Shown: positions 1 to 50,283 of the stretch, in pieces | How the letters are laid out: every line of letters starts with the position of its first letter | Numbering within the stretch: the first letter of the stretch is position 1 | Origin: Chara braunii | Taxonomy: Eukaryota > Plantae > Charophyceae | Direction of reading: 5' to 3' | Assembly (NCBI GenBank): GCA_003427395.1 | Contig: BFEA01000003.1 | Location: 118,905 to 182,904 of the forward strand | Length of the DNA stretch: 64,000 nucleotides | Notes under the pieces: model-generated | The model's database searches: none | What the model was told of the DNA's origin: nothing | The model's input: only the letters and a program-made list of their open reading frames with translations | Translations under genes and position numbers: made by a program

Positions 1-338
1 AGGGTCATAAGCCCCCTCCTTGCCATCGGACACGGGTACCCGTTAGTGATAGTCCGTGGATGCCTTATGGGTAACGTGAGGGGTCGGGTAGTATTCCATT
101 ATGGGATCGTTGAGCTAGCAAAAACGTCACGCCAGGGAACGGAGAGGTTGCGATGGGCTGTAAGAAAACTCTACTCATAATGTGACCGTTCAAGTTGGCG
201 ATTTGCCTTCAGGTCCGTTCCTTTTATTCTACCTGGTTATTATCCTCGAAAGACTCGGTTAATAAAACAAAAGATTTTAAATATTATTTGAGTTTAGTCC
301 CTCGTTTAGAACACAGAGGTTGCGATAAGCGGTGGTAC

Positions 339-346
339 TATAAAAG
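339..346 (+). promoter_or_regulatory. TATA box upstream of ORF A (copy 1)
   Basis: TATAAAAG in a block conserved with copy 2 (43683-43690, - strand), ~190 nt upstream of a GCCATGG start. Confidence 0.55.
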
Positions 347-528
347 AAAGGGGAAGTTGATTTCTGGTTACCGCCTTGCTAGTGAGCGTCAGGCGTGCTC
401 TCCACGCTCTGAGTCAGGTTGCTGCTCACAGCCAGTCGTTCGACTGCCTTGGCCTATGTTGTTCAAGCGCCCACTATTTTGGGCCAGTGGCCTGGTACGA
501 TACGGGGTTTATTGAGCAAAGTCCGGCC

Positions 529-1052
529 ATGGTGCAACATGGATATAGGCTGGACTGTTGGAACCTCCGGACGCGTTGGAGGCAAATGTCTAGGGAGGGA
601 CCAGTATCACCGTTATCCTCAACTACGACGGGGGAGATGAAATCGAACTGAAAATTGATGTAGAAGGGGCGAAGGAGGGGGAAATGAGAACTAATTCTAA
701 GCTGCAGGATGCGATCACGGAGGCAAGGGATCGCGCGGAAAGGCGTTGCAGGAGGGATGGAGTTACCACGAGGATGTTAGTGACACTGGCGTATCATGAG
801 GCGGAGACTTCCACCGACACGATACACCGGGAACAGGCACATTTGGACAGCGACTCAGGAGGAAAGAGCGAAATGAGGGAGGGAGGAGACAGGGAAACCG
901 ATCTCCAGTCCTGGAATCGGCCGGACCAGGTTCGCAAGAACCACCCTCAGGCGCGACCTGTGGAAGGCGGGCCCGAGGCCAGCTCGCGACAGCAGAGGCC
1001 CAGAGGCCGCGAGACAGTTGAGACGAGGGGCAAGAGGGAGAGACACGTGTGA
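529..1052 (+). pseudogene. ORF A, unknown protein, copy 1 (one frameshift near 605)
   Basis: MVQHGYR...EGP joins by a frameshift to ITVILNYD...EMRTNSKLQDAITEARDRAERRCRRD...DRETDLQSWNRPDQVRKNHP. Clearly homologous to ORF 42967-43470. Confidence 0.75.
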
Positions 1053-3067
1053 GAGAGAGATTCTTCGAGGGCGGCAGAAGAGCACAGAGGGCGGACGTCA
1101 ACTTTGACTTCCGCGTATGGGAGTACACCACAGGACAGGGATGACACGGAGTAGAGAGAGACACTATGGTTAACACGTGTAGTTGCGAATCACGTGCGAT
1201 CTGGCGGATGATGCCCTACCGGTAGAAGGGACGTGAGAGCGTGTGGTGTTGTTGACGTCACCTTCACTTCCGTTGGAGCGACGAGACTGTCACCCTTGCG
1301 CGGCTTAGGCGGCTATCATGGGAGGCATCACCCTTGCAAGAGTTGCGGTCGACGTGGACAGTTCGGGATGAGCTTGACCCGAGCTTGATCAAGCCAGGGC
1401 GGTCTTTTTTTTGCGAGTTCGGGCGACGGGGCCATCCATGCACGAACCCGGTGGAAAACGAGCCGGAGACAGACTCGCGACAGCGGACAAGCGGGCGGTA
1501 AGACCTTGCGTAGAGGGCACAAGGACAAGACAATGTCAACCTGTTTCTGCTCAGGTGAGGTAGTTGATCCGTCACGAGAGAGAGAAGAGACTTCTTGGGC
1601 GTGTAATGGGTGACAGACTCAAGGGACATGTAGGCTGGTGGAGCTCAATTCTCGATGACAGGAGAAGCCAGGCGCTCTAAACAGTTGCATCCGGGGGAAG
1701 GTGTTGTTCCAATTAAGGAAGAGAAAGGGGAAATCAGGTGCAGTGGGTGAAAACACCAGGGCGTGTTCGCCGTTCGATTGCACGATGACTAAAGCTGCGT
1801 CTAGGCAGTCACTGCTCGCTCACTAGTTGCTGTCGGAAGCAAGGGGGCGTTTTGCGAGGACCAGGATGGTTGTGTGGCTATTGGCAGCCATGTCATGGCA
1901 ATGTCTAGCGGTGCACGAGATGGAGAGAGAGAGCTCCCGCTAAGAGCTCTGAGCGACCAGTCTCCGAACGGTTTGTCTTAGTAACGTACTCTCGTGTGAC
2001 TGAATGTGGACTAGTCCTCCTCACGGGGTCTGATGAAACGTTCGTTGCGTATCATTTGAGTTTGACATCATTCATGGCGTAGCTCTCCTAGTACCCGTGT
2101 TTCCAAGGAGGGTGGGTTGATGGAGTAATGTCAATTAGGCGTATTGGGCGAAGAAAAAACTGGCGTTTTTTGCCATGCCCTGCGCAAACCGGTTCAACTG
2201 CTGAACTGGTAATCCCTGTTCGTCCTTCCTTTGTTGAGTTTAAGCCACGATTTTAGTCATTCCTATTCTGTAAGTTGATCAGATTTCACAGTGGTACTGT
2301 GGAAAGATTGCGAACGGAGAACGGGGACTGACAAAAATTACCTTTTGGTGCTATATGTGGCCACTTTTCCTACAATACTCGAGTCTCGGATTGATCGAAC
2401 CCTGCCTAATAGCAACAAACAGAAGGGAAAAGGGTTTTCTTGTGAGTCATTACAGCTATGCTGGAGGCATAACTTGATCGTGTAAAAGTTTCAATTAAAG
2501 CAAGTATTCCAAGTAAGGTTTTATCAGGTATCGCAATGAGGAAAGATGTATGATAAGAGGCCTGTAGTATTCAATTGTCAGCAGGAGAACTATGGAGTTA
2601 GACTGTGTACGAGCCTGTAGCGCTTTAGTCACCGTTCGTATGACTGTGAGGTGTTGAGAGACAAGTGAATGCCATCTCAGATGACTCTCGCGTAAACGTC
2701 CATTGAACTGGTAAGCATGAGAGGGTTACAGACTTGGCATCCGTATCCACTTCGTGAATAAAGTATCGACAATGATTTCCTTGGTTGAACATTCATCGAA
2801 CTGACCCGTTTTCTCTGAGTATTATTTTTTCTTTTCTTTTCTTGTTTAATAATAACTGGGAAAATGGGCAAGATCCGGACGGCAGAGTTGCAGGAAATGA
2901 GGCCTCAGATCATTACAACACGCTTTTTGACCAGGCGTTAAGAAAGAGGAAAAGGATTTTCCCCCAACGTGATTAAGCGAGTGTCATAGCCAACGAGAAT
3001 CTCAATCTTGATGATCTGATTCGTGGGTTTAGTAGGTCGACGCTTATCAACACTACCATTTTCGTTG

Positions 3068-3136
3068 ATGGGGAAAAGGAAAATACTACGAGAAGTCGCT
3101 TACCTCCTAGTAAAATTCCTAATTGATGGTGATTAG
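3068..3136 (+). CDS. ORF B, micro-ORF or conserved C-terminus of a short protein (MGKRKILREVAYLLVKFLIDGD), copy 1
   Basis: Hand-translated. Aligns with MGKRKAILRKIFYVLAKFLLDGD* at 41491-41562 (-) with synonymous differences and the same stop position. Confidence 0.5.
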   Translation: MGKRKILREVAYLLVKFLIDGD

Positions 3137-3984
3137 GTCTTTTTTTTTTTTTTTTTTTTTTTTTCTTTTGTGTCCTCCCTCATACATGAATGAGTACGTG
3201 TCAACGTTTTTTCGTATCCTGTGAGACACGAAGCAATGGGGCTTATGTACAACACGTAGGACTGGGAAGAGCGCTTGCCTAGACCCAGATATCATATAGT
3301 TGGGCTAGCAATAGTAACGCACTTGTGTTGTGCACTTGTGTTAGTCGAGTCAGACATCATGCTCTACGGAGGGCAAAGAGGGAACACGCAATACGCCCTG
3401 TTCGTGTTAGCCGTAAAACTGTACTTTATGCATGGAGATCTTAAGGTGCACAGTCTAGAGCAAGAACGTCCATGTTCGCGATTGTAACACCGAGTGCAGA
3501 GTGACCCTGCAATCAAAGTCAATCGGCAGACCTTGATTAAGCCCAATGCCTTGATCTCCTCTAGTAAGAATGATAAAGGACATGCCAAGTGACAGTATGC
3601 AGAATATGGACGGGTCATACAATTAAGTAGGTGCTTTTGGGATGCCTAAACTGTGTGTGGGTTGCATGAGACGAAAAGCTTTGAGCGACCCTGATTATGC
3701 GTGAGAAACCCCAGTGTCGGCCTCGTTTGGGTTCCCAAGAGCCCTTTTGATGTCGAGTGTGTCATAATCTTGACGATATGTCATTCAACATTGCAAATGC
3801 GCACTTACCACTTTCGGCTTGGCCTGCTCCTGGTCGATACCGACACCCTGAAAAAAAAAACGGGCAATGTGCTGTTGTGCGAAAACTGTTGGGGGCGACT
3901 TACTTCTCCTTGAGTATCAAGCCCAACCGAGTTGTTTTCAACCCACCTTACTTGTTGTTCGTAACTTGGTAAGTCATATGAAAC

Positions 3985-4230
3985 ATGAGAGAAGACGAAG
4001 TCCTATTAGTAAAGTGTTGTTCTGTGAGAGACAGAAAGGAAAGATGGGAGGAAGAAGCCTACACAGATAGGGAAACTCATAAACTGACTCAGAGGAGGTA
4101 TGTTGTAGAGATGGTCGGAGGAAAGAAGTATATCAAATATGTGCTTTACTTTTACTGTCGAGATGGTAAATTGCACAGTTTCAATTCGTTCCTAGAAGTC
4201 ATCGAACAGGCCAGATCAAGGCGCGTGTAG
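3985..4230 (+). CDS. ORF C, 81-aa unknown protein, copy 1
   Basis: Intact. Ungapped alignment to the 81-aa ORF at 40307-40552 gives 25/81 identities, with the motif YFYxxDG(K/R)LHS. Confidence 0.75.
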   Translation: MREDEVLLVKCCSVRDRKERWEEEAYTDRETHKLTQRRYVVEMVGGKKYIKYVLYFYCRDGKLHSFNSFLEVIEQARSRRV

Positions 4231-4516
4231 AAGCAGGAAATACCCAGACTCCCTTCACGAATTTCATTGGTATCTTGGTTAAGGAAAAGTTTCACCTTGC
4301 CCACTTCAGTGCTTTCAAGTAATCGGTGTCCTGGTAATCTAACATCCCAAAAGCTTGACCAGAATCAGATCACGGTCTGATTAGGATTTCAAATCTGTTC
4401 TCAATCAGTTTTCAAATCAGCAGTTCAACAATGTCTAGTCTTGTCGGCGTATCCGATAAGTAGGAAATACGCAGCTCTTGGTGCTCAGTCATGTCATCCG
4501 TCAACAACGCTCTTGT

Positions 4517-4630
4517 GCAGTTGTCAGTGACTAGTACTCAACGCAGTTGTCAGTGTACAGTACTCAACGCAGCTGTTGGTGACTAGTACGCAAACGCAGA
4601 TGTTAGTGACTAATACTCAATGTTGTTGTC
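4517..4630 (+). repeat. ~26-bp tandem repeat x4 (GCAGTTGTCAGTGACTAGTACTCAAC)
   Basis: Units start at about 4517, 4543, 4569 and 4596, upstream of ORF D. Confidence 0.8.
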
Positions 4631-4994
4631 AAAAGAGCGGCACTCAAAGCAACATTCAGAAACATGCTCAACTCTGTAAACTTGTCAACCCAATGACTAG
4701 TTGGTAATTGAATCAGCAACCTTTACATGTGATCAGAGCTCGGTGACTGTACTTCCCTGGACCTAATCAGGACTTAATTAAAATTTTTAATCAACGCCCA
4801 GACAATTTTTCAGGTAGCAATCCAGCAGCATTCAACTACAATCATTCCCCAACAATCTGTTATCTGTGCAACAGTCAGATCCTGGTCTGAACTGAACAGA
4901 CACTTGGCGGTTGTTATCCAACACAAAGTTCAACATTATTCAGACGGTATCTTTACTAGAAGGGACCGACCTGCCCTAATTTCCACTTCAGCCT

Positions 4995-5651
4995 ATGAGT
5001 ACAGTCCAATCATCCTCGGCTCAGGAGAATGTCCTGACCAGTCTCAATCTGATCGCTTCCGGAGATGCTTTCCGGTATCGGTATGTCAGTCCAGTCGGTT
5101 TCAGACAGGAGGACTTATCCATCTATGTGGTCCACACTGAGTTCGCTGGTGGTACCGTTCATGACTTGAGGCCCTACTTGAAGAAGGGCAAGGAGTCTCA
5201 TGAGCACTTTGACTTAGTCTGGACTGCAGCAGCCAAGTACCTGGAAGAGAGGGAGAAAGAGCTCGACGAGAGCGGTGCCAAGCTGATTCACAGTTTCGTA
5301 CCAAAGCTCTTCTCTGACTATCCCAGGCCTCCAATACCTTTTACTCTTATTGATGGTTCTTGTTGGGGTGACTTGATAGATTTGGCAAAGAGGTATATAT
5401 CACCAGCGCAGATTGACTATCAGGCCTTGACGGAGCCCTCAGAGTTCGATCATCTCGGACGAGGAATCTTCTCTAGACCCTATCTGCCTACATTATGGGA
5501 AGAGTTTTGTTCCATGATTGACTTTCGAGTCATGTACCTTGGATGTAAATGTTCAAAGCTTGCAGACTTCAGGTGGCTCTATATACAGAGGTCACAACCT
5601 CATAGAGTACGGAGACACGGCAAGAAACCCAAACGACGGACAACAAAATAA
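4995..5651 (+). CDS. ORF D, 218-aa unknown protein with basic C-terminal tail, copy 1
   Basis: Intact ORF. Strongly similar to the disrupted copy at 38832-39486 (e.g. AAKYLEERE, SDYPRPP, YLPTLWEEFC). Confidence 0.8.
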   Translation: MSTVQSSSAQENVLTSLNLIASGDAFRYRYVSPVGFRQEDLSIYVVHTEFAGGTVHDLRPYLKKGKESHEHFDLVWTAAAKYLEEREKELDESGAKLIHSFVPKLFSDYPRPPIPFTLIDGSCWGDLIDLAKRYISPAQIDYQALTEPSEFDHLGRGIFSRPYLPTLWEEFCSMIDFRVMYLGCKCSKLADFRWLYIQRSQPHRVRRHGKKPKRRTTK

Positions 5652-6671
5652 AAGATTGAGTGTGATGTTCAGAGGGATGAGTGAGGACTCCTGATTGGTG
5701 TTGGTCATGCTCTCTTCCATATATACTTCCTGAGACTATTATGAGTTTCCATTCTTCCCTCATTCATTTGACTTTGTCATTGCTCGAGTCAGTCGGTCTT
5801 GCTTCTTGCATTGTTCTTACTTGATGATTGCTTTCGTGGATGATTATGTCACAGTTCTCACGATCGGATTGACTTAATTGATGCATGCATAGCACTCCAC
5901 AATTTATGATTATTATTTGCACGATTCTCCGCTGTTCCGAATCAAAATAAAAGATTCCTAAGACCGGGGACCGGCGAAGACCGTAATTGAAGGGTCTCGC
6001 TCGAAGCCGGACGCACACAGCAGGAAGGGATTTGCTTTATTTGATTTATTTTATTTATTGCAAGAGCATACAAAATCCTGTGTGACAGCCTGTTGGCTTT
6101 CCGGTCGCCTGAAGTGGCCTGACTGGAAAAAGTGCGACAGCGCGAGCGAGAGAAAGAGAGAGAGAGAGAGATAACTCGCGTACTACTCCACGACAGCCCA
6201 GTCGTGTTCGCTTGCGATCAGCCACGAGGCAGGCGGAGGGGTTTCGCAGGAGGACGACTGTAGCAGCCCGTTCCACCAGATGTGATTGCTACAGGCCGAA
6301 CAGCTCAGTACCCAAGCGGAAGTATTCGTACGGGTCGGTACATGTCATTGACACGGCCCGGAAAGAAGCCCAAGTTCCACCCCGGCGGGTACCACACACT
6401 GTGTGACTGACGACACCAATGAACGGCCACACATCTTTGTCGCTTGCGACTCAACGGTCGGGCGAGTCCCCATGCTGTATCCGCCTCCCTTAGTCCGAAA
6501 AGTCCCACCAACTGCCCGCCCAAAAAGTCTTGCCTCACAATTCGAAAAAGTGCCTAAAAGATTGGGCAAGAGGGATTGAAGTTTTCTTTTTTACTACCGA
6601 CGGATCGGGCCCGTCCACTGCGCTTCTTTTTCAAACTCCCCAAAAAGAAGAGTAGTCGGATCATACTCTTA

Positions 6672-6969
6672 GGGCCTAGTTGCACTACTCTCCGTAGGCC
6701 AAGTTTGGCGAGTAGGCGCCTGGTTGCACTTACTCGCCAAACTTGGCGAATGCAAAATGTGTCAGACGGCTCGCCACACCGTCGACACAAGCGGTGGAAA
6801 GTGAATTCGGTTTCCGCGCCTGTGCACGGCGGTTTGTGGAGGGTGGTCATCGGACCTCTCCACAAAACAACTTTCTGGAGTGCAGGGCTTCACGAGTCGA
6901 CATCAGGTAGACAAAAAATTTTAACTTTTTGTAGAAGAAATCTAGTGGCGAGTAAGTGCAACCAGGCCT
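6672..6969. mobile_element. Harbinger/Tourist-like MITE
   Basis: TTA followed by GGGCCTAGTTGCACTACTC at the left end and GAGTAAGTGCAACCAGGCC at the right end. Non-coding. An inverted homolog lies at 22226-22575. Confidence 0.6.
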
Positions 6970-7613
6970 CGAGTTCGACACAATTCTTCTTTATATATAT
7001 ATATATATATATATAAGGCTTATTTATACATTGCAAATCCTTGGGATGAGGTTGGAGACCTCAACAATTCAACCCGGAGTTATCCTGGCAGCCTCAACCA
7101 GTTTAGCTTATGAGCAGTGCTCGGTAACCCCTCCATTGTTAAAACGGTCATCCTCAAAAAGGCTGGAAACCGGGTCCAGCATCCCTTCCTAGCCTACACT
7201 TTACAATATTGCTCTTTAACACATAGTAAAGAGAGAACAAAGCAAACTCTCAAAATCCTCATCTATCAACTAGTAAACAGGAAACCCAGATAAAAGTCAC
7301 AGTCCATAGATCTGTATACCTATTCTTATGACATAATGTTGCCAACAAAAAGCCCATTTTTTCGCTGTGCTGGAAATCGGGTCCAACGTCCCCTAAATGT
7401 TTCGTTCATATATCAACAAAAGAGAGAGAAGTGAAAGTTTTCCTGTGCATCTTCCAGTCGAGAGACCGTTTTCAGAATTGGGTCTAAAATGACACCTACA
7501 GGATTGTATATACCGGTCTGAAACTGTGTCCTGAGAAGCAGGTTGCCTATGAAGGCAGACTTCTCCCCTAAAGCGGCCGAACCGAGGACACGGCCCCCCC
7601 TCTTTATCCTGTA

Positions 7614-10600
7614 TCACATTACGGTCAGCGGTCCTTTCAACCATGGGGCCAATATCATTTTCCCTTCATCAGAAATTGTCACAAAGAGGTTGTTTTTCGC
7701 CCGAGTTTTACTGAACCATACAAAATCGTGATTTTTCCAATCCGTTATGATAACGAAACGGATTTTCTTTCTAATGTAATTGGTGGTCTGTTGTAGGCCA
7801 ATTGTTTCTCTCCGGAAGACTTTCGTGTTCTTCATAGCCCATATAGATTCCATTATTATTCCTCTGTAGATCAAGGTCTTGTACCACACACCTGACGAGA
7901 AGCTAGTTCCTTCAGATGGTTGACGATAAAGGATAAAGTTGTCAATCCAAATCAATCTCTCCTCACCACAGTCCTTCCATTTTTCTTTTCACCATTCTCA
8001 TAATTCGTTTGAAAAAGGGCAGCACAACCACACGTGAGCTGCGTTTTCCCAGCCCCAGTCGCACCTTTCACAGGTGGTGGGAATATTCATACCTTTGGAG
8101 TTGAGCCATAGCGCCGAGGGAGTAATTTGGAGGGACTAGAACCAAAGGATGGCGGCCCTCTTTTGGGACGGCATTTTTTCAGCGCTTTCCATAGCTTGAA
8201 CAAGACTTCATCTTGAATGTTTGTTACTTGCTGTGTTGCTAGTCTTCTCTGGACTGTGTAAATAGGTTTCTTGATAACCTTTTCCTGAAGCAACCGCATA
8301 CCAATCTTAGACTCGTAATGGTATAGGGGGGTAGGGGACGGCTCTGCCACCGAGGCGGGCCAGCCTAACAATAATGGTTCCACCCCCTTGTAATCAGGTC
8401 CTAGATTGAGGACTTGGATTTCCCTTGCCTGTCTGCCCTGGTGTTGACAGACTCTAGCTTCCATGAAACCTATTGTAGATGGGATGGTAGCGTCCTTCAT
8501 ATATTTCAGTTTGTCTCCTCCTTTGACTTTTCGAACCCAGCATTGTACCTTTATTTCCGCCCCGAGCTCAGGCTCCAAAACTTTCCAAATTGTACCATTT
8601 CCATCATCCGCCAGCAACCAGGTATGTTGGTTGTATTTTGTCCCCTCCCTTAGGGCTGTGACCCAATGGGGGGGGTAGCTTGCTCTGTCGTCTGGAGGTT
8701 TATTTCCTGGTTTCTCAAACTGGGAAGTTTTTCTCTTACCTTCAGCAGGGGGAGCCAGTCCCCTTCGCAGAGGTCCCACAAGTCTCTAATTTGTATTATT
8801 CCTCTTTCAATCAAGGCACGCCCAAAAGAGTATACACTCCCATCTGCCATAAGTAGGTCCTCCCCCTCAGTTTTTATGAAACTGTTTTCAAATATCACTT
8901 GGTTGAGAATCTCCTCCTTGGAGTTAGGCTCCCTAAGGGGGTGGGGCAAAACTTTGTTTCATGCAAATATGATATTTTTCCAAATGTGGGAGGATGACCG
9001 TCTATGGCTATATGATTTAATCTGTAGGCATAGCCAAACATGGGTTCCTTTTTGAAGATTTTATTCCTGTTGCAAGATGTACTCAGCCAACACTACCCAT
9101 ATTTTATCTTTAGGGTCGAACATTGCCAGTACAGATCATTTTGTCAGAAGAGCAATATTTTGCTGGTAGGGGTCTAAGATCCCCATGCCCCCTTGATCTC
9201 TTGGGCAGGCTATGGTTTTCCAGGCCACTTTGACGATAAAACCTTAGTCTTCCTCCGACCGAGGTTTCTAGATGTATCTTGCCCCAACCACCTTTATCGC
9301 CTTGTAAGCCTCCTCCCTTAGCAGGTGAACCGAGAGTGGAAACCAGAGGGTAGAGAAGGTTGATGAGGAGAGAATCAGCGCTCTCCCAAATAGGGAGAGC
9401 CTGTGGTGGCGGATCCAACCCAGGATTTTCCCTACCACCTTGTCTTTAAGGAGAGCGTCCTGGGCTCCGAAACAGTCCAACAGTGAAACCTGGACCCCTA
9501 GAAAGCGGTCTGAGGAGTTTGTTGGGATCAATTTCATGCCCCAATTGACGCAAAACGAAAAGGGGGGAGCGAGGATATAAACTGACTTTTTCCAATTGAT
9601 CGACACCTCTGAAAGGATACAGTATTCCTCCAAGACCCTCCTCAGTTCCGAGAAGGATTATGGCTTGTTTGCACAAGCGACCAGAGGGCAACCTTGGCGT
9701 AGGGATCTAGTTAGTGGGAAGACTTCTGAGAGTCTGTCAATTTACTAGCACAATTGAGGAGGCATCCTCATACATAGCCCTCACCCACTTACAGAACCCC
9801 ACTCCACAACTCATTTTATAAAGGGGTGTAAATACAAAAGTCCAGCCTACCTTGTCATAAGCCTTTTTCATATCTAGTAACAACACTGCCATATCTAGTT
9901 TTTCCTTTCCTAGAATCTCAAGGGCTTGGATGATGGATATTATGTTGTCAAAGATTGTCCTCCCTTTCACAAAAGCTCCTTGTTCCCACCCTATCAATTG
10001 TGGCAGGTAGTTTGAGAGTCTGAGCACAAGGGTCTTAGCTAGGATTTTGTAAGCAACGTTTAGTACTGAGATAGGTCTGTAGTTTTTGACTTCCTTTTTT
10101 GTCTCCTTTCTTATAAAGTAGAGAGATCACGCATGTTAGCCATGTTTTAGGCAACCTACCTAATTGTAAGGAATGATTAAAAATATGACAAAAAAAAGGG
10201 CTGAAGGAATCCGAGCAACATAGGAAGAGCTTCACGGGTAATCCATTTGATCCCGGACATTTCCCTTTGACCATCTGTTTTGCTGTCGTCAATAGCTCCT
10301 GTACTGAGAAAAACTCATCCAAGGCTTGTCTGGCTGAGAGTGGTAATGAAGTTTGCATGTTGTCCCAAAATGTTGATACTCCTGAGAGATCCGTGTCTAC
10401 AGAGGCTTAGAGGCGCCTCGAGGAGACTATCTCTGCATGGTAGAGTTTGGCATACTGACACGTCTCCCCTATGTCTTGGGCAATGGGGGCATTGGGGTCC
10501 GCGGGGTGTACCAATTCCCTCAATAACGGCTTAGCTTGATGTAAGAGTACGGACCTGAACGTCATTTTGGTCATCTTGTCGTAGTCTGTTAGGCCCCTTA

Positions 10601-21585: not shown

Positions 21586-22225
21586 TCAGGTAGGTGTAAG
21601 GTGGCACCAGAGCACTCGGTGCGGTAGGGTCACAGTGGGCCTTTTTAGTAGACTGTCTCTAGAGCTAGTAGAACCAGGACACTCGGTTCGGCAGGGTCGT
21701 GGTGGGCCATTAGGAGAGTGCCAGTAGAACTGGGACAGTAGTCCCCTGGGCCGAGTTAGTCCCAGTCTAGTGTAGAGGCCAGTTCATACTGGGCAGGCAT
21801 TCATCAAAGTTGGAACCGATCCACTGCTAGTCCGGTATTGGTGTACTCAGGGCAGTTTTGTAGTAGTAACAGTTATCTGAAACTGCAAGAATTCAAAGTC
21901 AGACTCAGGCACGGAAATGTTCGTATGGAAGTTAAACTAGTGCATAGGTTATACTCTGCACTGGCAAGAGTATCCGCAGGTCTCCTACCTGTAAGCTAAG
22001 CTGACTGATGCTGTCAGATACATCCGGGTGGTTTGTGAGGTCCCCGGTCTCGATTGGCATTATTAATGAACTGTTGCTTTGTAAAAAAAAATTAGAAAAA
22101 GTTCTATTATATCTACTTGAAGGTCCGTGTTGAATAAAATAGCTACCCCTCCTTTCGTACCGTCTGCCGGGGGCCAAAATTGCGGGCCCGAAATGTGACG
22201 GATGGCGAGTAGTGCAACTAGGCCC

Positions 22226-24921: not shown

Positions 24922-24983
<62 letters not shown>

Positions 24984-35750: not shown

Positions 35751-37726
35751 AGAATGCACGACAGAAAGTGTCAACAGCAAATGTGAAGATGCAGCAAATA
35801 ATCTATCCTACTTTGAGTAGTTCTCAATCACCAGCAAATGACAGAACTGGAAATGGTAGACTGCTACAGTTCCAGTCTATTGCCCTCTGTTAGGTATCGG
35901 CAGTCAAACACCTCAACTAATCAAAAATAAAATAAATCACTTGTCCAGATGCATGTGCGAGGATCTGGGTCCTCGGCAGGCCTAAGGGGCCCTGATACAG
36001 GTGTGCCCTAAGTGAAGGTTGGCCTAACAAATCTCGAAAGGCCCTCTGCTGTCAATGTCGTATTTGGGGTCCAGGCAGTTGTGATGTGCCAGTTGGTTGA
36101 GGGAAACACAGGCCGAGCAGCAAAGACATTCCACAGCCTTCCAGGCTTTTCCTGAAATGCAGGCCCTGGGCAAGAATTGCAGCCTCATACACAGACAGTT
36201 GGGAGGCCCAACCGAATGAGGCCCAGTAGCTGCAACAGAGACACAGCCTCCTGGGGCCTACCAGAGGCTTCTGGGCAGAGGCCCAGGCCAGCCAGGCCGC
36301 TGGTTGAGGCAGGCTCTTTCCATATAGGAAAGAGCACGCTGGCAGGTCTGGCATTCAGGCACTTGCCAGATGCTGCGGCAGAGCTGCTGGAGCGATTGCT
36401 CACGGGCTGCTTAGCGCTAAGGGCAAGGTGCTGTGCGAGTGTGGTCGCGCAGGAAGCAGGGCGCTGCTGAGGGCAGGAACATAGCCCTGCCATCCATAGC
36501 TGGATGGGCTTGGACTACAGTGAGACGCAGGGGTGGTCTGCGGGTGTACAAGGCATAGACATGGGTTAAAGTCAGGGGGGAGAGAGAAGGATGATGATGA
36601 TGAGGATGATGTGAGGGTTCATACCTGGTATTGGCGATGGTCTGCATTGGGCGACATCAAGTACTGGCTGCTGATGTCAACAGTTGTGTTGTCAATTAGT
36701 AGGCAGACAATAGCTGTGTAGGAAGTAGGCTGGGCGCAGAGCGCCAAGTAGGGAGAACGGCCTGGACACTCATGTTGGTGGTGGCGAGAGCAAGCTCTCA
36801 TTGACATTGGTTTTCAGTGTTACGATTCTTCATTGGTGTTATATTGGTGCAATTCTGCTTTCTGGATATATGGCTTTCAATGTGATTGTGCATTCTGGAT
36901 TTTGTCATCTCGCTAATGCTCATTTTCCTTGCACATGCAAAATGGAAATGAAAATAATAATAATTGAGCTCCAATTGGAGCCTTCAATTCCCCTGTATCC
37001 AACATCCTGGCTGAAAATTGATCAAGCAGCGGTGTCTGTGGTGTGCACACTGGCGTACCCGTGTGCCCACGTGATGAAGAACGAGCCAGCCCTGTCCGCA
37101 CCATTTTTGTCCTCGCGTACAGTGCGAGTCGTTTTCCGCTCCATAGTATCTTGAACGGTACACGGCAATCCCCCATAGGGCTGGCCTTCACAATACACCG
37201 TCTATGCACAGCAAGACAATGCAGCAAATCATGTGTGCTCTACTCCCATGGGTTGGCATGGTGACTGTGGCCCGTGCTTTGTCCAAGGTGCTTCAAGGCA
37301 CTGCCGTCTCCCACCAGGTGCTCCACCAGGAAGAATGTCAGCTCTCAAGGTAGAGCGCTCGTGACTCCTGAGCACAAGAGGAGTCTCCAGCATTTTCTCC
37401 CTCATGGTAAGAAACGTTAGTAACAAAGCGCATGGACATAGCTGCACCCAACCACAAATTTCGCACCAATTGAGCCAATGGGCATTTTGATGACCAGTAA
37501 AAGCCTCGGTACCACACAATACAATGCAGTGCCACCTCAGCACAAATGCCACATCAGCATGCGCTTGTTATCCCCATACACCCGCTGTCACCACTGCCTT
37601 CCATCCCACTCCCCTCTACCCGGGAGGGACTCCAATCAGTCAGCATCTAAGTATCCTTACTGCTGAGAAGCTTCGTTTCACCAAGTAACCAAGACACTAG
37701 TGCCAATATGGTGATATCTGAACCAT

Positions 37727-37737: not shown

Positions 37738-38831
37738 AATTGTAAGGAAAATGAGTGAGAGGGATGGAGAGAGCCAAATTGCAATATCACGTTGTCCCAA
37801 GCAGAAGGCGTAATGCTTGGAGAAAGAAGCCAAATAAGAGCAATAGAGTGAACCCAAATGTCATTGTCAGCCTCTTCTCGCCACCATCAATGATGTATCC
37901 AATCCCCGCCCTTCTTGAAGGGCGCCCAGTGCCTTGCCTACCTCTACTCAGAATCTACTCTTGTCTACACAATGACCTGCTATAGGAATCACTTCAAGCT
38001 GAAGACCAAATGTACTTGATGAAGTCGACCATGCAGACTGCCGCATACACCAGGTATGTGCCTCTCATCTCTCTCACCTCACCCCCTTTGCTCCCACCTT
38101 ATGTCCATTTGACCAAAGGCCACCATCGCCATCACCAGGCTCTGCTGAGCATGCCCGACTATGGCTGCTCAACGCCCACAGTGCTTGCTGCGGCCTCTCA
38201 CCTCTATGCACCCGTGTGCACCCTGACGCTTGTCTCCAATGACCTCCACCTTCAAACTGGCAGCGTGGCCGCAAGATAGAGCCAACCAGAATGTGCTCCT
38301 CCTTGGGCTCTCACTTTCCTAATGGAAAGTGAGATCTGCCCTCGCGCTTTTTCTAGTCCGGCCACTTCGGGCGACCAGAAAGCCAACAGGCTGTCACGCA
38401 GGATTTTGTAGTTGTTTGCAATAAATAAATAAATTAAATAAAGCAAATCCCTTCTTGTTGTGTGCGTCCGGCTTCGAGCGAGACCCTTCAATTGCGATCT
38501 TCGTCGGTCCCCGGTCTCAGGAATCTTTTATTTTGATTCGGAACAACAGAAAATCATGCAATTGATAACCATTAAATTTTTGGTGTGTTATGCATACATT
38601 AACTTGTCAGTTTACTAATTTTGAGAACTGTGATAGAGTCGTTAAGAAATGTAATCATCAAGCATGGCAATGCAAAGAAGCAAGACTAACTGACTCAAGC
38701 AATGACAAAGTCAAATGAGGGAAGAATGAAAACTCGATGCTCACAATCTCGAGTCCTCACTCATCCCTCTGGGTCATGCTCACACTAATCTCGAGTCCTC
38801 GCTCATCCCTCTGGGTCATGCTCACAATCTC

Positions 38832-39486
38832 TCATTTAGCTGTCTGTTTCTTGTGCTTTCGGCCATGTCACCGCACTTTCTGAGATTGTGGTTTCTGTAC
38901 GTAGAGCCGCCTGAAACCTGCTAGTTCTGAGCACTTCCATCCAAGGTACATGATACGAAAATCAACCATGGCACAAAATTCCTCCCATAGTGTTGGAAGA
39001 TACGACTGAGAAAAGATCCCTCGTCTGAGATGCGGGAACTCGGATGGTTCTGTCACTGCCTCGTAGTCAACAGTAGCGGGAGAGACATACCTCTTGGCCA
39101 GATTGATCAGGTCACCCCAGTGAGAGCCGTCAGTCAGAGTAAAAGGCATTGGGGGTCTGGGATAGTCTGAGTAGAGCTTTGGTCCGAAGCTGCGGATCAG
39201 CTTAGTACAACCCTCATCAAGCTCTCTCTCTCTCTCTTCAAGATACTTGGCTGCCATAGTCCAGATTGAGTTAGAGTGCTCATGAGTCTCCTTTCCCTTT
39301 TTCACATAGTCTTAGATCATAAATGGTATCTCCTGCAAACTTGGTAAGAACAACATATATCGACAGGTCACCTTGCCTGAAGTCAATGGCGCTGACATAC
39401 TGGTACTGGAAAGCATCCTTGGAAGAAATCGTGTTGAGACTGGCCAGTACAGCCTCTTGGACCGAGAATGATTGGACTGCACTCAT
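38832..39486 (-). pseudogene. ORF D, copy 2 (frameshift near 39305, premature stop at 38868)
   Basis: MSAVQSFSVQEAVLASLN... then KKGKETHEH...KVR*HGRKHKKQTAK*, colinear with 4995-5651. Confidence 0.8.
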
Positions 39487-39883
39487 GTGCTGCTGCTGAC
39501 TGATGAAACTGAACACTTCACTCCTTATCGTGAGCTATGTCTTAATGTCTGATGGGATGGAGGGTTAACCGCTTGCTGATTGAAAGGTGATTGAATGCTG
39601 ATTGATAGGTGCTTGAACGCTGATTGATAGGTGCTTGAATGGTGATTGATTTCTCCTCTCACATCATGACAATGCCTCGTAATCCCGGTTACGGCTAGTC
39701 TCTTGAAAGTACTGAACGGTCTCTTCTACGTCTGACCCCTGAGCATTGTCGTGTGATTCCCACTTTGACAGTTTGTCTTTTTCTGTTTTACACAGTCTAC
39801 TCATGAAGTACCCCCTTCTCCTTTATAATGTCTGACTGCAAACTGATGCTGATTTTTGATGCAATCAAGAAAAGTTGAATGCT

Positions 39884-40009
39884 GATTGAGTACTGACTAG
39901 ATACTGGTTGGGTGGTGATTGGATAATGGATCACCAAACGCTAGCCGATTGAGTACTGACTAGATACTGGTTGGGTGGTGATTGGATAATGGATCACCAA
40001 ACGCTAGCC
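39884..40009. repeat. 63-bp tandem duplication upstream of ORF D, copy 2
   Basis: GATTGAGTACTGACTAG...CGCTAGCC occurs twice in tandem. Confidence 0.9.
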
Positions 40010-40306
40010 TATTGGCGCTCAAAAGGTCGAAAAAATTGCAGATCTCAGTGTGAAAAGTAATATCTGAGCCTTGACTAATCTTTTGATGAAAAATTTGGAG
40101 TAGTTCAACAATTGGGTTTTAAATTATACTTGACATTTGATTGACGTTTAAGCACCTGATTGAATGCTTTGACTCTTAAGTAGCTGGGTGTTTAGTTGGA
40201 TAACTGGTTCTCGAAGTTGCCACATGCCCTAGCCTCGCCAGTCCACCCTCTGCTGTGTACGACACGGTACTGTTAGTAACCTTTTCTCTTCTTACCCTTA
40301 CTGTTG

Positions 40307-40552
40307 TTAGCTAAAGACCTCTCGTGCCTGGTCCACCGTTTCTGCTGATGAGATGGTGCTGTGCAGTCGCCCGTCCGACTCGTAGAAGTAGACAGTGTAT
40401 GCCACGAACTTCTGATCTTTCACTATTTCTAGCACTCTCTTTCTCATCAGCCCCAAGATGTACGAAATTTCCTCAACTGCTTTCTCCTTCCAGTCATCCC
40501 TCCTGTCCAGGTGGAGGGCATAGGTCATCCTCACCTTGTCTCTGCTTTCCAT
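40307..40552 (-). CDS. ORF C, 81-aa unknown protein, copy 2
   Basis: Intact, with the same length and motifs as 3985-4230. Confidence 0.75.
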   Translation of the reverse strand: MESRDKVRMTYALHLDRRDDWKEKAVEEISYILGLMRKRVLEIVKDQKFVAYTVYFYESDGRLHSTISSAETVDQAREVFS

Positions 40553-41490
40553 GATTATCGCGCCCCTCTCATAATCTTGACTTGGGCTTGCAGGGACATG
40601 ATGGGAAGCAGAGGACCGTTAATATTTCTCATGAGATTTCGTCGGGCTGGTTTCACTTGATCACGACAGTGACTCTCAGTCGTGCACAGAATAGGCCCCA
40701 GAGTAACCAGACAAAAATACATGGATCAGGCAGATGACTGTGGAAAACAGATCTGTTGTAGTGGCCAGGAAGAAGGCTTGTTGTTTTGAAACTCAAATGG
40801 ATGTTGAAGGGGGGTTAGGGTTCTTTGTACCCCCGAATGAGGTAACGGTCGAGTAAGAGATTTCTTGCTAATTACAGGCTCTGATTGTTGTATCGTGTGC
40901 AGGGGCTATAGATGCCGATACTCAGGTAAGAGCTCGTCCGATCGGAACTTCAGCTCGGAAGCAGAGACCCTGGGCTCAGGGTGAGTCTGAACGCAAGGTA
41001 GATCCCATTACGAGGTTCATACATTTAAAGCCGTGAATCTAAGTGTGATTGAGTATTGTCGGCCCAGTCACTCATACGCCGCGTGGTATCAACCAGGGTA
41101 CCGGGGCTCAATAATCGACCCTAAGTATAGCCCACTCGTCCTACTTCAAAGACAGACCATACTCGTTACGCCACTCTAACTAAAAGTCTGACATAGTTAA
41201 AGCTCAGAGCCCGGGTCTTTCACCTAAAGACCTTGATTCCTGGCACTTGACCAGTCCGTACTCAAGTTCAGTGAAAACAGATAGGAACAAGGTCTCTGAG
41301 AAAATTGCCCTAGTGCTCACGCTGCTGGTGATTACGTAGAGGTCAACTGAGGGCAAGAGTCTCTTGAGATCAGGAAGGAGTGCACACATCGCACTCTCAC
41401 AACATAATTAAGACCCTGTTGGCTATGATGGGGAACTCATGTTACTTTTCTTTGAGTTGGAACTTGCCCCAACCTGGGCAAAATAGACAC

Positions 41491-41691
41491 TTAGTCACCA
41501 TCAAGTAGAAATTTAGCGAGGACATAAAATATTTTCCTCAGTATTGCCTTTCTTTTCCCCATCCATTCAAAAAGTCAAGGCCTAGAGCATAGCCAATGGA
41601 AATCGTCCCTGCATTCCCTTTGACATACAAGCCCACTTAGTGGGCCCGGAAGTAGACCTGCATACTTGAACGGATACCTGCTTGCAGTCAT
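41491..41691 (-). pseudogene. ORF B, copy 2 (66 codons plus stop, one internal TGA; conserved part 41491-41562)
   Basis: MTASRYPF...CSRP*LFEWMGKRKAILRKIFYVLAKFLLDGD*. A TATATAAG lies ~60 nt upstream. Confidence 0.45.
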
Positions 41692-42966
41692 CAAACTCGC
41701 AAATGCATTCAATCGCGCATTCGTCTACTCACACGGGCACTTGCAAGCTTATATAGTCATGCACTCAATTTATCTTAGGGCACAAACGAACTCATACAAC
41801 TACAAGCAAGTATTCGATCAGGTGAGTCAATGTAAGCCAACGCGTTCACACGCTCATGCAGTCTCACGGTGCAGTCACACGAAAAGGGAAGGGAAAGGTC
41901 AGAATCCTAATTGCATTTGTGGCCTCCGTCTTCACAGGGATTAAGCACACAATACAAGGATTGCATAACTCTTTGGCCTTGCCAAGTAGTCGAGTAAGCC
42001 ACTCAATGCAAGTAGTACATCAGATAGGCAAGTGTGCTCATTGGAGCGCCTTCACAGGGCTTCATGACCAGCGCCAACATTGAAGCAAGAGCTCTATAAC
42101 AACGGCCCACCTTCGCAAGTTTGCTTCTTTGATTGATTCTCTTTTAGTGATGTTGAAGGTCACGTGAAGGTGACAAAACAGTTGGTCATTGGAGCGAGTG
42201 CGCCAACCGGGTGAGTGAGATCGTCTTCAAAGATTGAGAGGCCCCTACCTCTCTGGCCCCGCGGCCCCCGACCTTTTTCCACGCGTCTTTGTAACTCAGG
42301 CATCTATTTTAGCATAGAGCCCAACGTTCGTCTTCTCGCGTGCGTCTTGCTCAGACATAGGTTGCTTTTGCTCGGATACATTGGTGTAAATGGTGAGCAC
42401 ACACAAGCCCCTCCGACTCATCCCGCTAACTCAGTTGCCTGCACTCTCGCATCTTTCTCGCATATACTTCTCCTGGCTCACTCAGTAGCTAGCTCGTGGC
42501 CGTGCGGATCATGTATGTAATGATCAGAGTAGATGCGTTGAGTCTTCCTCATCTATTAGTATAGAGCATGACGACAGTCAGAAAGGATAAAGTGTGAGGG
42601 AATCCGTTCTGCGGCATCATGAGGAAGCTGTCCGTAGAAGACCCGCTGATCCTCTCCAATTTCCTGTCGTCGTGCGCATTCTTTGGCAACTTTTAAGCCA
42701 TCAGCACCTCTAACGACTCGACTCCAGAAAGACGCGTGGCGTCAACAACGGATTATCGTGGGCTGGTTGTGCTCATGCGTCTTTCCCCTTCAGGATTTTG
42801 CCACGGCGTCTTGACAAGATGATCACTATCGTTTCTTTTGCTCTCCTTCAGGACCACGTCTAAACCGCTAGTTGACATCAACAGTAATTTTTCCCACTGT
42901 GCACGCGCACTGACTTTCTTCTTGTCCCCCTCCCCATACAACACGTGTCTCTCTCTCTCGTAACCA

Positions 42967-43470
42967 CTAGCCTCTCCCTTGAGTGTGTCGATCCCCCTGT
43001 CGCCAAGAGCTGACCTCCGGGTCGTTTTCAACTGGTCGCGCCAGAGGGTGGTTCCTGCGAACCTGATCCGGCCTGCTCCAGGACTGGAGATCAGTCTCCC
43101 GGTCACAGGCTTCACTCTCCGCCTCTGAATCACGGTCTAGGTGCCGTTGTTCGCGCTCCGCTGTGTCCGTCGAGGTCCCAATTTCCAGGTAAGAAACGGT
43201 CACTTTCAATTCGTTTGTGACCCTGTCCCTCCTGCATCTCCTCTCCGCTCGATCCTTGGCCTCTGTGATGGCCAGTTGCAACCCATGGTCTGCTCTCATC
43301 TCTTCTTCCCTTCCTCCTTCCACGTTTACCTTTAGCCGCACCTCCTGGTTACAACGATTATAGTCTAGTATAGCCGTCACTGCAGGCCCTTCCCCAAACA
43401 TTTTCTCCCACCTCCAAATGTACTGGAGGTATTTCGGCCTATAGCCATAAAGTCTGTTGCTTCGAACCAT
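42967..43470 (-). CDS. ORF A, copy 2, unknown protein
   Basis: Open from GCCATGG at 43470. Homologous to 529-1052. TATA box at 43683-43690. Confidence 0.75.
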   Translation of the reverse strand: MVRSNRLYGYRPKYLQYIWRWEKMFGEGPAVTAILDYNRCNQEVRLKVNVEGGREEEMRADHGLQLAITEAKDRAERRCRRDRVTNELKVTVSYLEIGTSTDTAEREQRHLDRDSEAESEACDRETDLQSWSRPDQVRRNHPLARPVENDPEVSSWRQGDRHTQGRG

Positions 43471-44713
43471 GGCCACCCTCGCCGAAATATTAGACAGGCA
43501 CCGACTGCTAGCTCTCGGCTAGCCGTACTCCGACACTCGGAACACGAGGCTGAGCAGTCAGACAATCCCCCGCGCATATCACGCCGCCCCAGCCCCCTCT
43601 CCTTTGGGCCTTCAAATACTCAGCGCAACAAATTTACTCAGGCTCAGAGCTGACGCGGCTGGATTGATAGACTCACCCTCCTCTTTTATAGGCTCTCATT
43701 ATTGCGATCCCCGTGCTCTAAACGGGGAACTCAGGGTAGCCCTCAGGGCTTAACTTAGCCCTCAGGGCTTAACTTATCAGTAAACTTTAAGTCCAAGAAT
43801 AATAAAATAAAATGAAAGCCGAAATTAAAATTGAAAATAAAGGAACCATCGCACAGGCGAACCTTTCATTTTTAGTCCTTGTCACTTCGTCTTACTCCGG
43901 AGTGATTGTGACCTCAAGGCATTGATCCCATAACGGGATACCAGCCATCCTTCCTCCTTTCAAAAACGCACCTTCGGACTATCCCTGACGGGTACCCGTG
44001 TCCGATGGCAAGGAGGGGGCTTATGACCTTCCATGGAGGGTGATAAGCCTCCTACCAACGCGGCCACGGGTCGCCCCTCTTTTGGGACCCTCCTGCGCAG
44101 CTGAACCGGACCGCTCAGCCACAGCGGCACGCGAGGGGCCGGACTGGTCTAGGCCACAAATCGTAACCGGGCTTCGAAATTCAAGCCGTTGGCCTCCCCG
44201 TGAAACGGAGGGCTGAAAAGACCTGAAGAGGACTGAGTAATAGTAATAATAATAATAGTAATAACAATAACAAGGATAAAAATAAAATCGAATCAAAAAG
44301 GAAAGGTCACCGCGACTCTACAACTCGAGGCCACCTATTCACCTCAGGCGAAAATAGTGAACTGTCTCGAGATACAGACTTGACACACGACTTTCCTCTT
44401 TTCTCGTTTCTCCTTTTCTCCTTTCTCCTTTGTACTTTCTTTTCCTCTGTACCTAGCCCAGATCACGACCCTCGGGCCCCAGTGAACGACCGAGTGGGTC
44501 TTGCCAGACCTGACGGTCACCTCAGCTGCAGACCCACTGCAAGGCAGGGAATGGAGCCTACGTGGTACCAACAAGGAAGTCCAGCAACCGTGTCAATCCA
44601 GTGCGGCCCTACGGACTGGTACCTGGTCTGCAGCAGAAGTATGCGGATGGCATCCTGTACACAGCAAAAAAGAAAGGGCGGTTGTCTGGAGTGCCTACCT
44701 GGTCCCATTTTGC

Positions 44714-44863: not shown

Positions 44864-47339
44864 CTTCTTTTCTACTTTCGTGCCCCTGGGCGAACCAGGC
44901 GGCTACCACCGCCACAGGCTGGTAGTGCTCTGCTGTACAGCAGGGCGCTGAGCCTGAGTGGACCAATGGAAAGTCCTGTGGCGCACCCTTTTGTTGAGGG
45001 CAAGCACCAACAGGACCGGTCTGTGTCGGGGCACCTCTCCGGTATATCAGCATAGTTGTGGAGGTTCGGAAACGGCTTAATGGGCCGCGGCATCAGAGCG
45101 AGGACCTGGTATCAAGTAGGGACGCGGTACACAGAGGAGGGCCGGGACACCTCTCCCTCAAACAGCGCGCCCTGGGCCTGGCTACCGAGTTTCCAGTAGC
45201 TTCTAGTCGGGCCCCACTATCTGCGCCCACGCCCAATGCAGACAGTGGCCTGGGCCCGCAACAGTTAAGCAGCCCAACTGTGCTACGTGGCCAGCGTCAC
45301 ATGTAATTCCGTTGGCCTCTGGCCTCTGGCCACATCGCAGCCTGGATGAGCCCACAGGGCCTGGGCCTTGTAACCAAGTGGTGCGTGGCAACTGTCTGGC
45401 GGCCCCACATGCAGACATGACAAAAATAAGGCCTCATGTTAAAGTGCAGGCCCACCTTCACTTAGTGCGGCCACGAGGCTTGCTGGGGGCCCCTTTCCTG
45501 TTGGGTGTCGGGGCCTAAAAGGTCCTGCGAGGGGCTCAATCCGTGCAAAGGTAATAAAACAAAAGAAAAATGCATGGTGTTTTGTTTCTATTATTTTGGA
45601 ATGGATCTGGACTGTTTCGTAGTGTTAGACTTTGGTTATCTTTTCTGCACTTTAGGAGTAGGTAGGGCGGTAGGCCTTTGTTTTTGTCGAGTCGGAGGTT
45701 AGTTGCCCTCTCACAGTTTCCTGTCTAGGTGCAGATGCAGATAATCCGTAGATGATTGCTGCATGGTCGGTCGGATCGTCCGTAGGCAGTTGTCCTAGCA
45801 GTTTAGAAGTCTACAAGTAGGTCGGGCACAAAGGAGGTCGGGTTCTTTTTGTAAGTTTTTTTGGTTGTGGAGGCGTGCGGTCTTGGCAGAACGAGGAGTG
45901 CTGATTTTAGCGCCCGCCATCTTCATCTTCTCGTGCAGTCTGGGTGGCCATAGCTGTGGGGCCCTGACATAGGAGGAGGCAGCGCCTGGTTGGAGTTCAT
46001 CTAGGCGCTGGAGGTAACTACCTCTGCGTGTTGTTTGTGGCGGTCGAAGACAACAGCTGCTTCATTGAGCGGCTGCTGGTGGGAGGCTGCCAGATCAAGG
46101 CAGCCGTCATTCTCTCCTTCATCGAAGTTCATCTTCTTCTTCATGGTGGTTTGGCGCTGCTGATGAGGCTTCTGACCTTACACCAGATCAGCGCCTGCAG
46201 CTGCAGACACGTAGGGATTGGGGCGCTGGTAGAGTAATGCGCTATTTGTGTGTATGGGTTGCTGGAGGAAGAAGTTTCGCGGAACAGTTGCTCAAGTTCT
46301 CTTGGGGGTTAATTGAGGGTGGAGAACAATTCATGGTTGAGATTCTCAAGGGTGTACTTGATTGTTGATGGTGGAGAGCAGGGGGATGAATAACTATTGA
46401 TTGAAAACTAATTTATTTTCTCTCAATCCCATATCAGGTTTTGGCGTCTGCTGTGCAACGGCCGGAATCTGCTCTCTTCAGTCTGCCTGTCATTGCAGAT
46501 GTGTGTGGGAAGATTCGGATGCGGTCTTGGATTGTGAAATAAAGCACAAAACACTGATTCTTGAGCCTTTCTGATTCTTTCCTTTGCTTTCATCTGCACT
46601 CTACACTCCTTGCTTTCCCTTGCTTTCCTTTTGCTTGTCTTTGCTTTCTCTCCATCTCTTTCTGTGTTTATCCTCTCCCCCTTTGCCCTGCCCCTTTCTG
46701 ACAGCGGGCCATGATGGCACACGGGGATGCGGGGAGCTCGCGCTCAACTTCATCAACGTGTCGAGCCTTGTGCGTGAGAGGCACAGTCAAGCGGGAGTTC
46801 AAAATATGAATGACAAAAATGAATGGTTTCAGTGCGCTCTTCATGTTTGCCTTGTGTATTTTTATTGTTTGTTTTGCGAAGTGCGTTCTTTTAGATCGTA
46901 GATGTGGTAATGTATGGCTGTGGTGGACTAGTTCTGGAGCTGATGTGCTGAGCCTAATCTGCCCCGGTACAGTAATGGTTTCTGGCAGTCCTATGTGGGG
47001 AAATTCGGGCCTATGGTGGTCACCACTTTGGGAAAAAGGGTGCGGATATGCTATGTATTGGTAGTTTGAAAAAAGGACTGGCTGGCTGTTTTTTAGAACC
47101 CATTATAAAAGGCTGGTCATGCGCAATACTCGAGACAGTTTTGTTTGGCAGTTTCTTTTCTCAGAAGGACACTGGTTCGTCATTTGTCTTCCCCGTTTGA
47201 ATGACAAGGCGATGTCTTTCAGCCACCAGGCAGATTCGGGGGGGGTGGGACGGTTGCAATCAGACTTGTCTCGTTCGTTCTCACTTCCAACATACATACA
47301 TGCCGATGCCGATGGCAGAACAACTTCCTCAATACTGAA

Positions 47340-50250: not shown

Positions 50251-50283
50251 GACCTACCCTCCCTTGGAGCGTGGACCTCCGAG

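Follow-up and report, generated by a model that had tools for sequence, protein, structure and literature searches.

Two copies of a gene-carrying unit

The stretch of Chara braunii DNA analyzed here (64,000 nucleotides, positions 118,905 to 182,904 of contig BFEA01000003.1 in assembly GCA_003427395.1; hereafter the window) harbors two copies of a repetitive unit in which four short open reading frames (ORFs), designated A, B, C and D, lie in the same order and on the same strand. Copy 1 occupies 1..6142 on the plus strand and is cut on its left side by the start of the window. Copy 2 occupies 38337..44460 on the minus strand, with 20 kb of upstream sequence within the window; its left end, 44460, is a candidate only, based on a TG start and a 4-bp target-site duplication (TSD). 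A BLASTN comparison of the window with itself revealed three colinear inverted blocks between the copies, namely 3-108 / 44028-43924 (81%), 711-992 / 43272-42997 (70%) and 4989-6137 / 39492-38342 (76%), and no shared flanks. By TBLASTX, all four ORFs of copy 1 were recovered in copy 2, in the same order and on the same strand. The spacers between the ORFs are unalignable; when they were searched against each other by TBLASTX, B (22 aa, 59%, E-value = 8 × 10-5) and C (62 aa, 39%) were found in order, and beyond these two and the opposite strand of C there was no match below an E-value of 0.2. These results agree with an earlier account of the window made from its letters (the sequence-only reading), which had described two copies with similar end blocks, genes A to D in order and diverged spacers.

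Genes A to D and their products

ORF A is frameshifted near 603-617 in copy 1 (529..1052, plus strand) and intact in copy 2 (42967..43470, minus strand; 167 aa), where a TATA box lies 220 nt upstream; a decayed second copy of its 3' part (75% over 40 nt) is present in copy 1 at 1424..1487 (plus strand). The micro-ORF B, encoding 22 aa at 3068..3136 (plus strand, copy 1; possibly a remnant) and 23 aa at 41491..41562 (minus strand, copy 2), is the least secure of the four. ORF C is intact in both copies (3985..4230, plus strand, and 40307..40552, minus strand; 81 aa each). ORF D is intact in copy 1 (4995..5651, plus strand; 218 aa, with a predicted folded N-terminal part of ~130 aa and a basic C-terminal tail) and has a frameshift near 39310 and an early stop at 38868 in copy 2 (38832..39486, minus strand). 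There is one frameshift per window copy, in A of copy 1 and in D of copy 2.

Constraint on the ORFs was estimated from Nei-Gojobori counts between copy 1 and copy 2. The ratio of nonsynonymous to synonymous substitution rates (dN/dS) is 0.15 for D, with a synonymous rate (dS) of 1.12 over 211 codons, and 0.24 for C over 62 codons, where the corresponding ratio of uncorrected proportions (pN/pS) is 0.61 (bootstrap 0.42-0.86). For A, pN is 0.21 against a pS of 0.81 (119 codons), the synonymous sites being saturated. The sequence-only reading had proposed purifying selection, and the values for D and C, well below 1 across the two copies, bear this out together with the counts for A; A, C and D have evolved under purifying selection across diverged lineages. 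Selection of this kind indicates that the genes were of use to the element that carries them.

At an E-value of 0.1 or below, Pfam had no family for D and C of copy 1 or for A of either copy, and copy-2 C gave one sub-threshold match; in sequence searches of Pfam, PHROGs and PDB, no significant match to A, C or D was obtained. In the structure model of D, residues 11-110 reach a per-residue confidence (pLDDT) of 77-92 by block and form a helix, three strands, a helix and a strand, the remainder being poor, and in that of A, residues 31-90 reach 80-87. Fold searches found nothing at an E-value of 0.001 or below for D in PDB or BFVD (best Z 5.2, tied generic rows) and nothing for A in BFVD (best Z 6.3, tied GNAT and gelsolin-like rows). 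The sequence-only reading had seen no reverse-transcriptase, integrase, transposase, recombinase, Rep/helicase or capsid motif, and these searches matched A, C and D to no known family; the missing fold matches of the A and D models do not establish a new fold. Several specific assignments were tried and dropped: D as kinase-like had only atlas matches below 0.9, with neither profile nor fold support, and by-eye leads to PC4 for D and to a methyl-CpG-binding (MBD) domain for C found no support. C had no match in the atlas search and no profile similarity to D or A, and an apparent profile link between A and D is an artefact, since the protein P0001 contains both.

No transmembrane segment was predicted in A, B, C or D, the highest hydropathy over 19 residues being 0.19-0.79; they are therefore not env-like, and A, C and D are soluble. 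The lack of an enzyme signature and of a membrane segment, together with the basic C-terminal tail that D has in both copies, suggests, with some doubt, that the products of A-D may be small nuclear regulators that counter host silencing of the element or activate it.

When D was searched against 1.84 billion representative proteins, its two best matches were C. braunii gene models, three more were short proteins from ENA, and the sixth, P0004, a repeat protein aligned over 29 residues, was discarded as spurious; a profile search added one further ENA protein, and a first search for homologues of near length found none among 172 candidates. The ENA proteins (P0003 and P0005-P0008) are stand-alone relatives of the N-terminal domain of D, 121-139 aa in length and 24-32% identical to it, on contigs of 0.5-1.5 kb; four of them are close together (61-90% to P0003), and P0005 is a separate branch. 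No related loci were found in viral contigs, JGI metagenomes or prokaryote genomes.

Conserved non-coding blocks

Three non-coding blocks are kept between the copies. At 3..56 (plus strand) of copy 1 lies the right arm of an imperfect hairpin of ~85 nt, identical to copy 2 at 52 of 54 positions; the complete hairpin is present in copy 2 at 43990..44075 (minus strand; DNA z -2.2, RNA z -1.9). A promoter-like block before ORF A (289..357, plus strand), with a TATA box at 339-346, is also kept in copy 2 and scores 49, against 33 for the best of 200 shuffles. The end block, 5933..6142 (plus strand) in copy 1 and 38337..38545 (minus strand) in copy 2, is identical at 186 of 204 positions; it contains AATAAA at 5946-5951 and a hairpin at 6098-6129 (RNA z -3.4) in which copy 2 has T-A in place of a C-G pair, a compensatory change relative to copy 1. 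Since the end block and the hairpin block are kept far better than synonymous sites, both act in cis.

Genomic contig sets X1 and X3 were mapped on copy 1 at 80% likeness, and these contigs show that position 1 is no terminus: 109 and 104 of them extend leftwards with the letters of copy 2 beyond 44029, which complete the ~85-nt hairpin. The extent of 1-6139 given in the sequence-only reading therefore holds on the right, where the unit ends at 6139-6142 (most likely at 6142/38337), and fails on the left, where position 1 is the window edge; likewise, of the two terminal blocks then proposed, the right one is a real end and the left one an internal hairpin.

The right end and its primer-binding site

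For the right end, contigs and reads were mapped on window 5560-6150. The match to copy 1 is left at 6139 by 126 contigs of X1 and 135 of X3, as well as by 25 reads of RNA run X6, and at 6142 by 53 and 57 further contigs. Behind 6139, the consensus among contigs is low (0.35-0.40), as expected for many different flanks, and the majority letters include the primer-binding site (PBS) GGCGCCGTTGCCGGGGA, with 17 of 17 letters in X6, 16 of 17 in X1 and 16 consecutive letters in X3. The spacer between the LTR end and the PBS is 5 nt long if the end is put at 6139, and 2 nt if it is put at 6142. The terminal dinucleotide is CA at 38337 in copy 2, and in copy 1 it is CA at 6139 and CG at 6142. This motif is the PBS given for FIDEL, where it is described as complementary to tRNA-Asp (PMC2844528); the PBS of ATHILA is given as tRNA-Asn/Asp, 3-6 nt behind the long terminal repeat (LTR), a specificity that the same report establishes for Athila in Brassicaceae only (bioRxiv 10.64898/2026.03.20.713144); and in Diaspora and Calypso the PBS is described as starting 5 bp behind the LTR (PMC1142308). 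According to a survey of plant elements, non-chromoviruses use such tRNAs, and most chromoviruses and the Ty1/copia lineages primed by whole tRNAs use tRNA-Met (PMC6317226).

The right terminal block is an LTR end, next to which a tRNA-Asp/Asn PBS lies in other members of the family. No PBS was found behind either window copy, and both copies are therefore 3' or solo LTR ends. Because the contigs stop at 6139-6142, the PBS stands in their majority continuation and the end block has great depth, the unit is very probably LTR-retrotransposon sequence and not a new or virus-like class. The first alternative of the sequence-only reading, the accessory region of a retroelement, is thereby supported, and its suggestion of an undescribed, self-standing or virus-like element is not.

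Abundance, dispersal and transcripts

The depth of contigs on copy 1 is not to be read as a copy number, and only its order of magnitude, thousands for the end block, is used here. Depth is 21-30 in the unique flanks, 23-120 in the spacers, 440-1,900 over A and 1,900-3,900 over D; it reaches 10,700-18,300 in the first bin, which holds the hairpin block (10,747 and 18,263 in the two sets), and 78,000-132,000 in the last bin, with peaks of 180,847 and 318,527 in the end block. A, C or D also occurs in at least 11 other gene models of C. braunii, whose scaffolds differ in length. A was found in 10 further models; in a search among longer proteins, nine of 351 candidates carried it, every one a C. 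braunii model. The gene order is kept elsewhere, with A followed by C in one model and by D in another. The 12 A sequences share 47-94% pairwise identity and fall into two branches, copy-1-like and copy-2-like. In short, there are more than two copies, and the inference of the sequence-only reading that they are old sister lineages of a mobile, multi-copy module is supported by depth, dispersal and the two branches.

The sequence joined to A in the 10 models is Gypsy pol in four, a LINE (long interspersed nuclear element) endonuclease, DapB and a glycosyltransferase in one each, and unassigned in three; such varying partners are as expected if gene predictors join neighbors. Some gene models of Chara, a DapB and a glycosyltransferase model among them, are corrupted by ORF A. 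In one model, P0017, a stretch of ~155 aa before A (~550-705) has no assignment, and residues 860-1147 behind A end in a weak aspartyl-protease match (E-value = 0.04); these stretches may represent an additional accessory ORF and the gag-protease of the family itself.

RNA reads were found on the unit in small numbers. On 1-8000, run X6 gave 1,612 reads from 16.7 million records, only 16 of them at 99% or above and with both strands represented over D, and run X5 gave 405 from 8.9 million; run X7 gave 13 from 16.2 million on the end stretch.

Where the genes lie in the element

The chances are about even that the unit is one very long (~6.1 kb) LTR, whose U3 (unique 3') region carries accessory genes A-D, in a tRNA-primed LTR retrotransposon family of C. 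braunii. The context of copy 2 favors a solo giant LTR, since the 20 kb upstream of this copy contain neither pol nor a second LTR of its family, old inverted repeats enclose it, and it has a weak TG..CA/TSD candidate. Within 44030-64000 we could not find a second LTR or end block, PBS or pol of the unit's family, as would be expected for a solo LTR; the only pol recognized there is that of an unrelated Gypsy element. The enclosing inverted homology (45153-45764 / 36312-35789; arms 45153..45540, plus strand, and 35960..36312, minus strand) scores 135 against 68 for the best of 200 simple base shuffles, and leaves ~6.8 kb at most for copy 2. Position 44460 is the sole TG in 44060-45150 preceded by the four bases that follow the CA at 38337, and the base composition shifts there. 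Between D and 5933 there is no clear junction of a polypurine tract (PPT) with TG, and no Athila-type PPT core was found at the candidate LTR starts; a solo LTR would have none.

On this basis the family would be a non-chromovirus Ty3/Gypsy element whose gag-pol sits in full-length copies elsewhere and drives tRNA-primed reverse transcription, and which would integrate with a short TSD. Reverse transcription would duplicate U3 and its cassette into both LTRs, and recombination between LTRs would leave solo cassettes like copy 2, which then decay; the genomic RNA may begin near 5930, in a block resembling R-U5 (the repeated and unique 5' regions), and end behind the AATAAA at 5946, and the conserved TATA block at 339 may drive a separate transcript for A. 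The picture as a whole, an abundant charophyte LTR retrotransposon with a ~6-kb LTR whose U3 contains three or four selected genes and their own promoter, whose solo LTRs leave gene cassettes, and whose gene D founds a family with distant environmental relatives, no matched fold and a counter-silencing or regulatory role, is a little short of an even chance.

Several observations weigh against it. No full-length element, reverse transcriptase (RT) or paired LTRs of the unit's family were seen, copy 1 ends in CG at 6142, and constraint is lacking in codons 1-17 of A (dN/dS 1.2). The RNA reads, few in number and found on both strands, derive from other copies, so that they demonstrate no mRNA for A-D, and no search result supports any specific function of the proteins. 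The inverted homology that encloses copy 2, with identity in 201 of 452 columns and a simple base shuffle as its null, could be two independent old repeats; the TSD candidate at 44460 has a chance of 0.16 under a Markov null, beyond TG/CA that start shows no complementarity to the end, and 4-bp TSDs are reported for 6% of plant elements (PMC6317226). Depth over D is ~100-fold lower than in the end block, and in the spacers it is down to 23-120, which also fits a short, high-copy LTR, and a 7-nt purine run followed by TG at 5671-5679, present in both copies, coincides with a 5-fold depth step and is a possible start of such an LTR. Published accounts, moreover, usually place accessory ORFs between pol and the 3' LTR (PMC7264820).

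The same retrotransposon family could instead hold A-D as internal accessory ORFs between pol, or the non-coding interior of a non-autonomous form, and a 3' LTR of 0.2-0.5 kb, copy 2 having lost its upstream part by deletion. This is a possibility of some weight, if a doubtful one: it would put the genes where extra ORFs usually lie in Athila, Ogre and Retand, and it would suit the steep depth gradient, with steps near 5665 and 5933, the shared purine run with its TG, and the AT-rich, TATA-like letters directly before 5933 in other copies. However, the purine run is only 7 nt long, and copy 2 would need an extra deletion of pol and the 5' LTR that spared the enclosing inverted repeats. Moreover, the four gene models that extend upstream of A (P0011, P0013, P0014 and P0017) do not match 44030-45600 and have no common sequence adjoining A.

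It is unlikely that the unit is a chimera, in which the end of an abundant LTR adjoins, or was taken up by, an independent element with genes of its own (Helitron-, Replitron-, Penelope- or virus-like). Hairpins lie near both ends, the relatives of D stand alone on short ENA contigs, and copy 1 is followed by a (GA)n run similar to the (CT)n targets given for the Penelope-like families of Chara; yet both diverged lineages (dS > 1) finish in the same LTR end, there is no HUH, GIY-YIG, recombinase or capsid match, the terminal repeats are not above chance level, no hammerhead motif was found, none of five 12-mers occurs in the Chara Penelope consensus files, and no relative of D is present in viral contigs. 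Segmental duplication of host genes, or neutral decay, would suit the near single-copy depth of the copy 1 spacers, but it is highly improbable and largely refuted by the dispersal of the genes (at least 11 further models, from scaffolds that differ in length), the lack of shared flanks, the PBS behind other copies and the frames broken in both copies.

Relation to known elements

In the Athila lineage (non-chromovirus Ty3/Gypsy, OTA superclade: Athila, Calypso, Diaspora, FIDEL), a tRNA-Asp/Asn PBS likewise follows the LTR end after a few bases, and extra ORFs are described as common in that superclade (PMC6317226). Unlike Athila, the unit has no Pfam match to Athila ORF-1 and no membrane segment, and where Athila has a single long ORF it has three or four short ones; the Athila LTR is given as typically 1-2 kb (bioRxiv 10.64898/2026.03.20.713144), against the candidate ~6.1 kb here. 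Ogre LTRs are reported to reach 6.5 kb (PMC6431247), but the extra ORFs of Ogre/Tat and Retand are described in the internal region and not in the LTR, and the unit has no match to the plant mobile domain or Transposase_28. Its features suggest that the unit works like an OTA-type Ty3/Gypsy element, whereas membership of Athila would be read from a phylogeny of RT, RNase H and integrase within OTA, and that of Tat, Ogre and Retand from an additional archaeal-type RNase H in pol; no RT or pol of the family was seen here.

In the layout proposed above, with small accessory genes copied together with the LTR and an own promoter, the unit would resemble certain retroviruses, with which it shares no demonstrated sequence or fold similarity. 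The sag gene of mouse mammary tumor virus (MMTV), nef of human immunodeficiency virus (HIV) and, with an internal promoter, tas/bet of foamy viruses lie in or reach into U3; the LTRs concerned are shorter than 2 kb and hold one or two such genes. Penelope elements have no tRNA PBS. The Penelope-like elements Chlamys and PLE-X (PMC8557442) occur in the same host, are 4-7 kb long and have microsatellite targets, but they encode RT and several carry hammerheads; in the unit, no Penelope-like feature (RT with or without GIY-YIG, pseudo-LTR, hammerhead) was found. Nor does it show the features of Helitrons and Replitrons, the latter as described in PMC10288648: there is no Rep match, the end is not CTRR, and repeats between the ends are at most 10 nt, at chance level. 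Features of DIRS/Ngaro elements (tyrosine recombinase, inverted or split direct repeats) were likewise not recognized.

In the papers searched we found no description of a retrotransposon family with A-D; Repbase, Dfam or the paper on the Chara genome may list it. Plant LTR retrotransposons are described as often having extra ORFs, whose origin and role are left open (PMC6317226, PMC7264820), and retrotransposons of other families are precedents for chromatin-related cargo (PMC5890265, PMC6673714). A multi-gene cassette of short, conserved ORFs in a charophyte, possibly within the LTR, would extend such ORFs to the algal relatives of land plants, and A-D would supply small soluble proteins for tests of counter-silencing or trans-activation. 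A ~6.1-kb LTR, if true, would just exceed the 6,000-bp LTR limit of a standard plant survey (PMC6317226), so that such elements may be missed.

Flanks of copy 2 and other repeats in the window

Six-frame searches of 44030-46200 and 36000-38340 revealed no domains, the flanks of copy 2 show no likeness to the LINEs of the window, and Rfam matched nothing real around this copy. Readings of these flanks as LINE, DIRS or recombinase sequence found no support, by-eye recombinase-like motifs upstream of copy 2 had no profile support, and an 8-bp terminal inverted repeat at 44137 was at chance level. The arms at 35789-36312 and 45153-45764 are old and GC-rich, and are possibly the long terminal inverted repeats of a DNA transposon with no domain between them. 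A 150-nt palindrome at 44714-44863 (arms of 62 nt, 97%), whose loop repeats 28 nt from 44960-44987, looks like the product of a local template switch.

Elsewhere in the window, a run of N at ~31650-32100 marks an assembly gap, and the only Rfam match is to U6 small nuclear RNA (35637-35740, plus strand, 78.8 bits), overlapped by a 40-nt tandem duplication and probably a pseudogene. Two decayed LINE-like elements lie at 14749-21500 (plus strand) and 8000-11600 (minus strand), with RT at 18501-20006 and endonuclease-like parts recognized by TBLASTN. A decayed Ty3/Gypsy element occupies 49042-58052 (minus strand); its 1.2-kb LTRs are 90.6% alike, its pol pieces match Chara models, and a repeat pair (47748-47977 / 60997-61223, 74%) surrounds it. 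Inverted copies of another abundant repeat lie at 6673-6834 and 22265-22573, contig depth in 6676-7209 being 8,600-25,900. At 7064-7115, ~52 nt are covered by RNA mainly from one strand, with bin depths of 57 against 4 in run X5 and of 97 against 19 in run X6; 200-400 reads continue on each side with the same loose letters, as in a small exon or a repeat piece within an abundant transcript.

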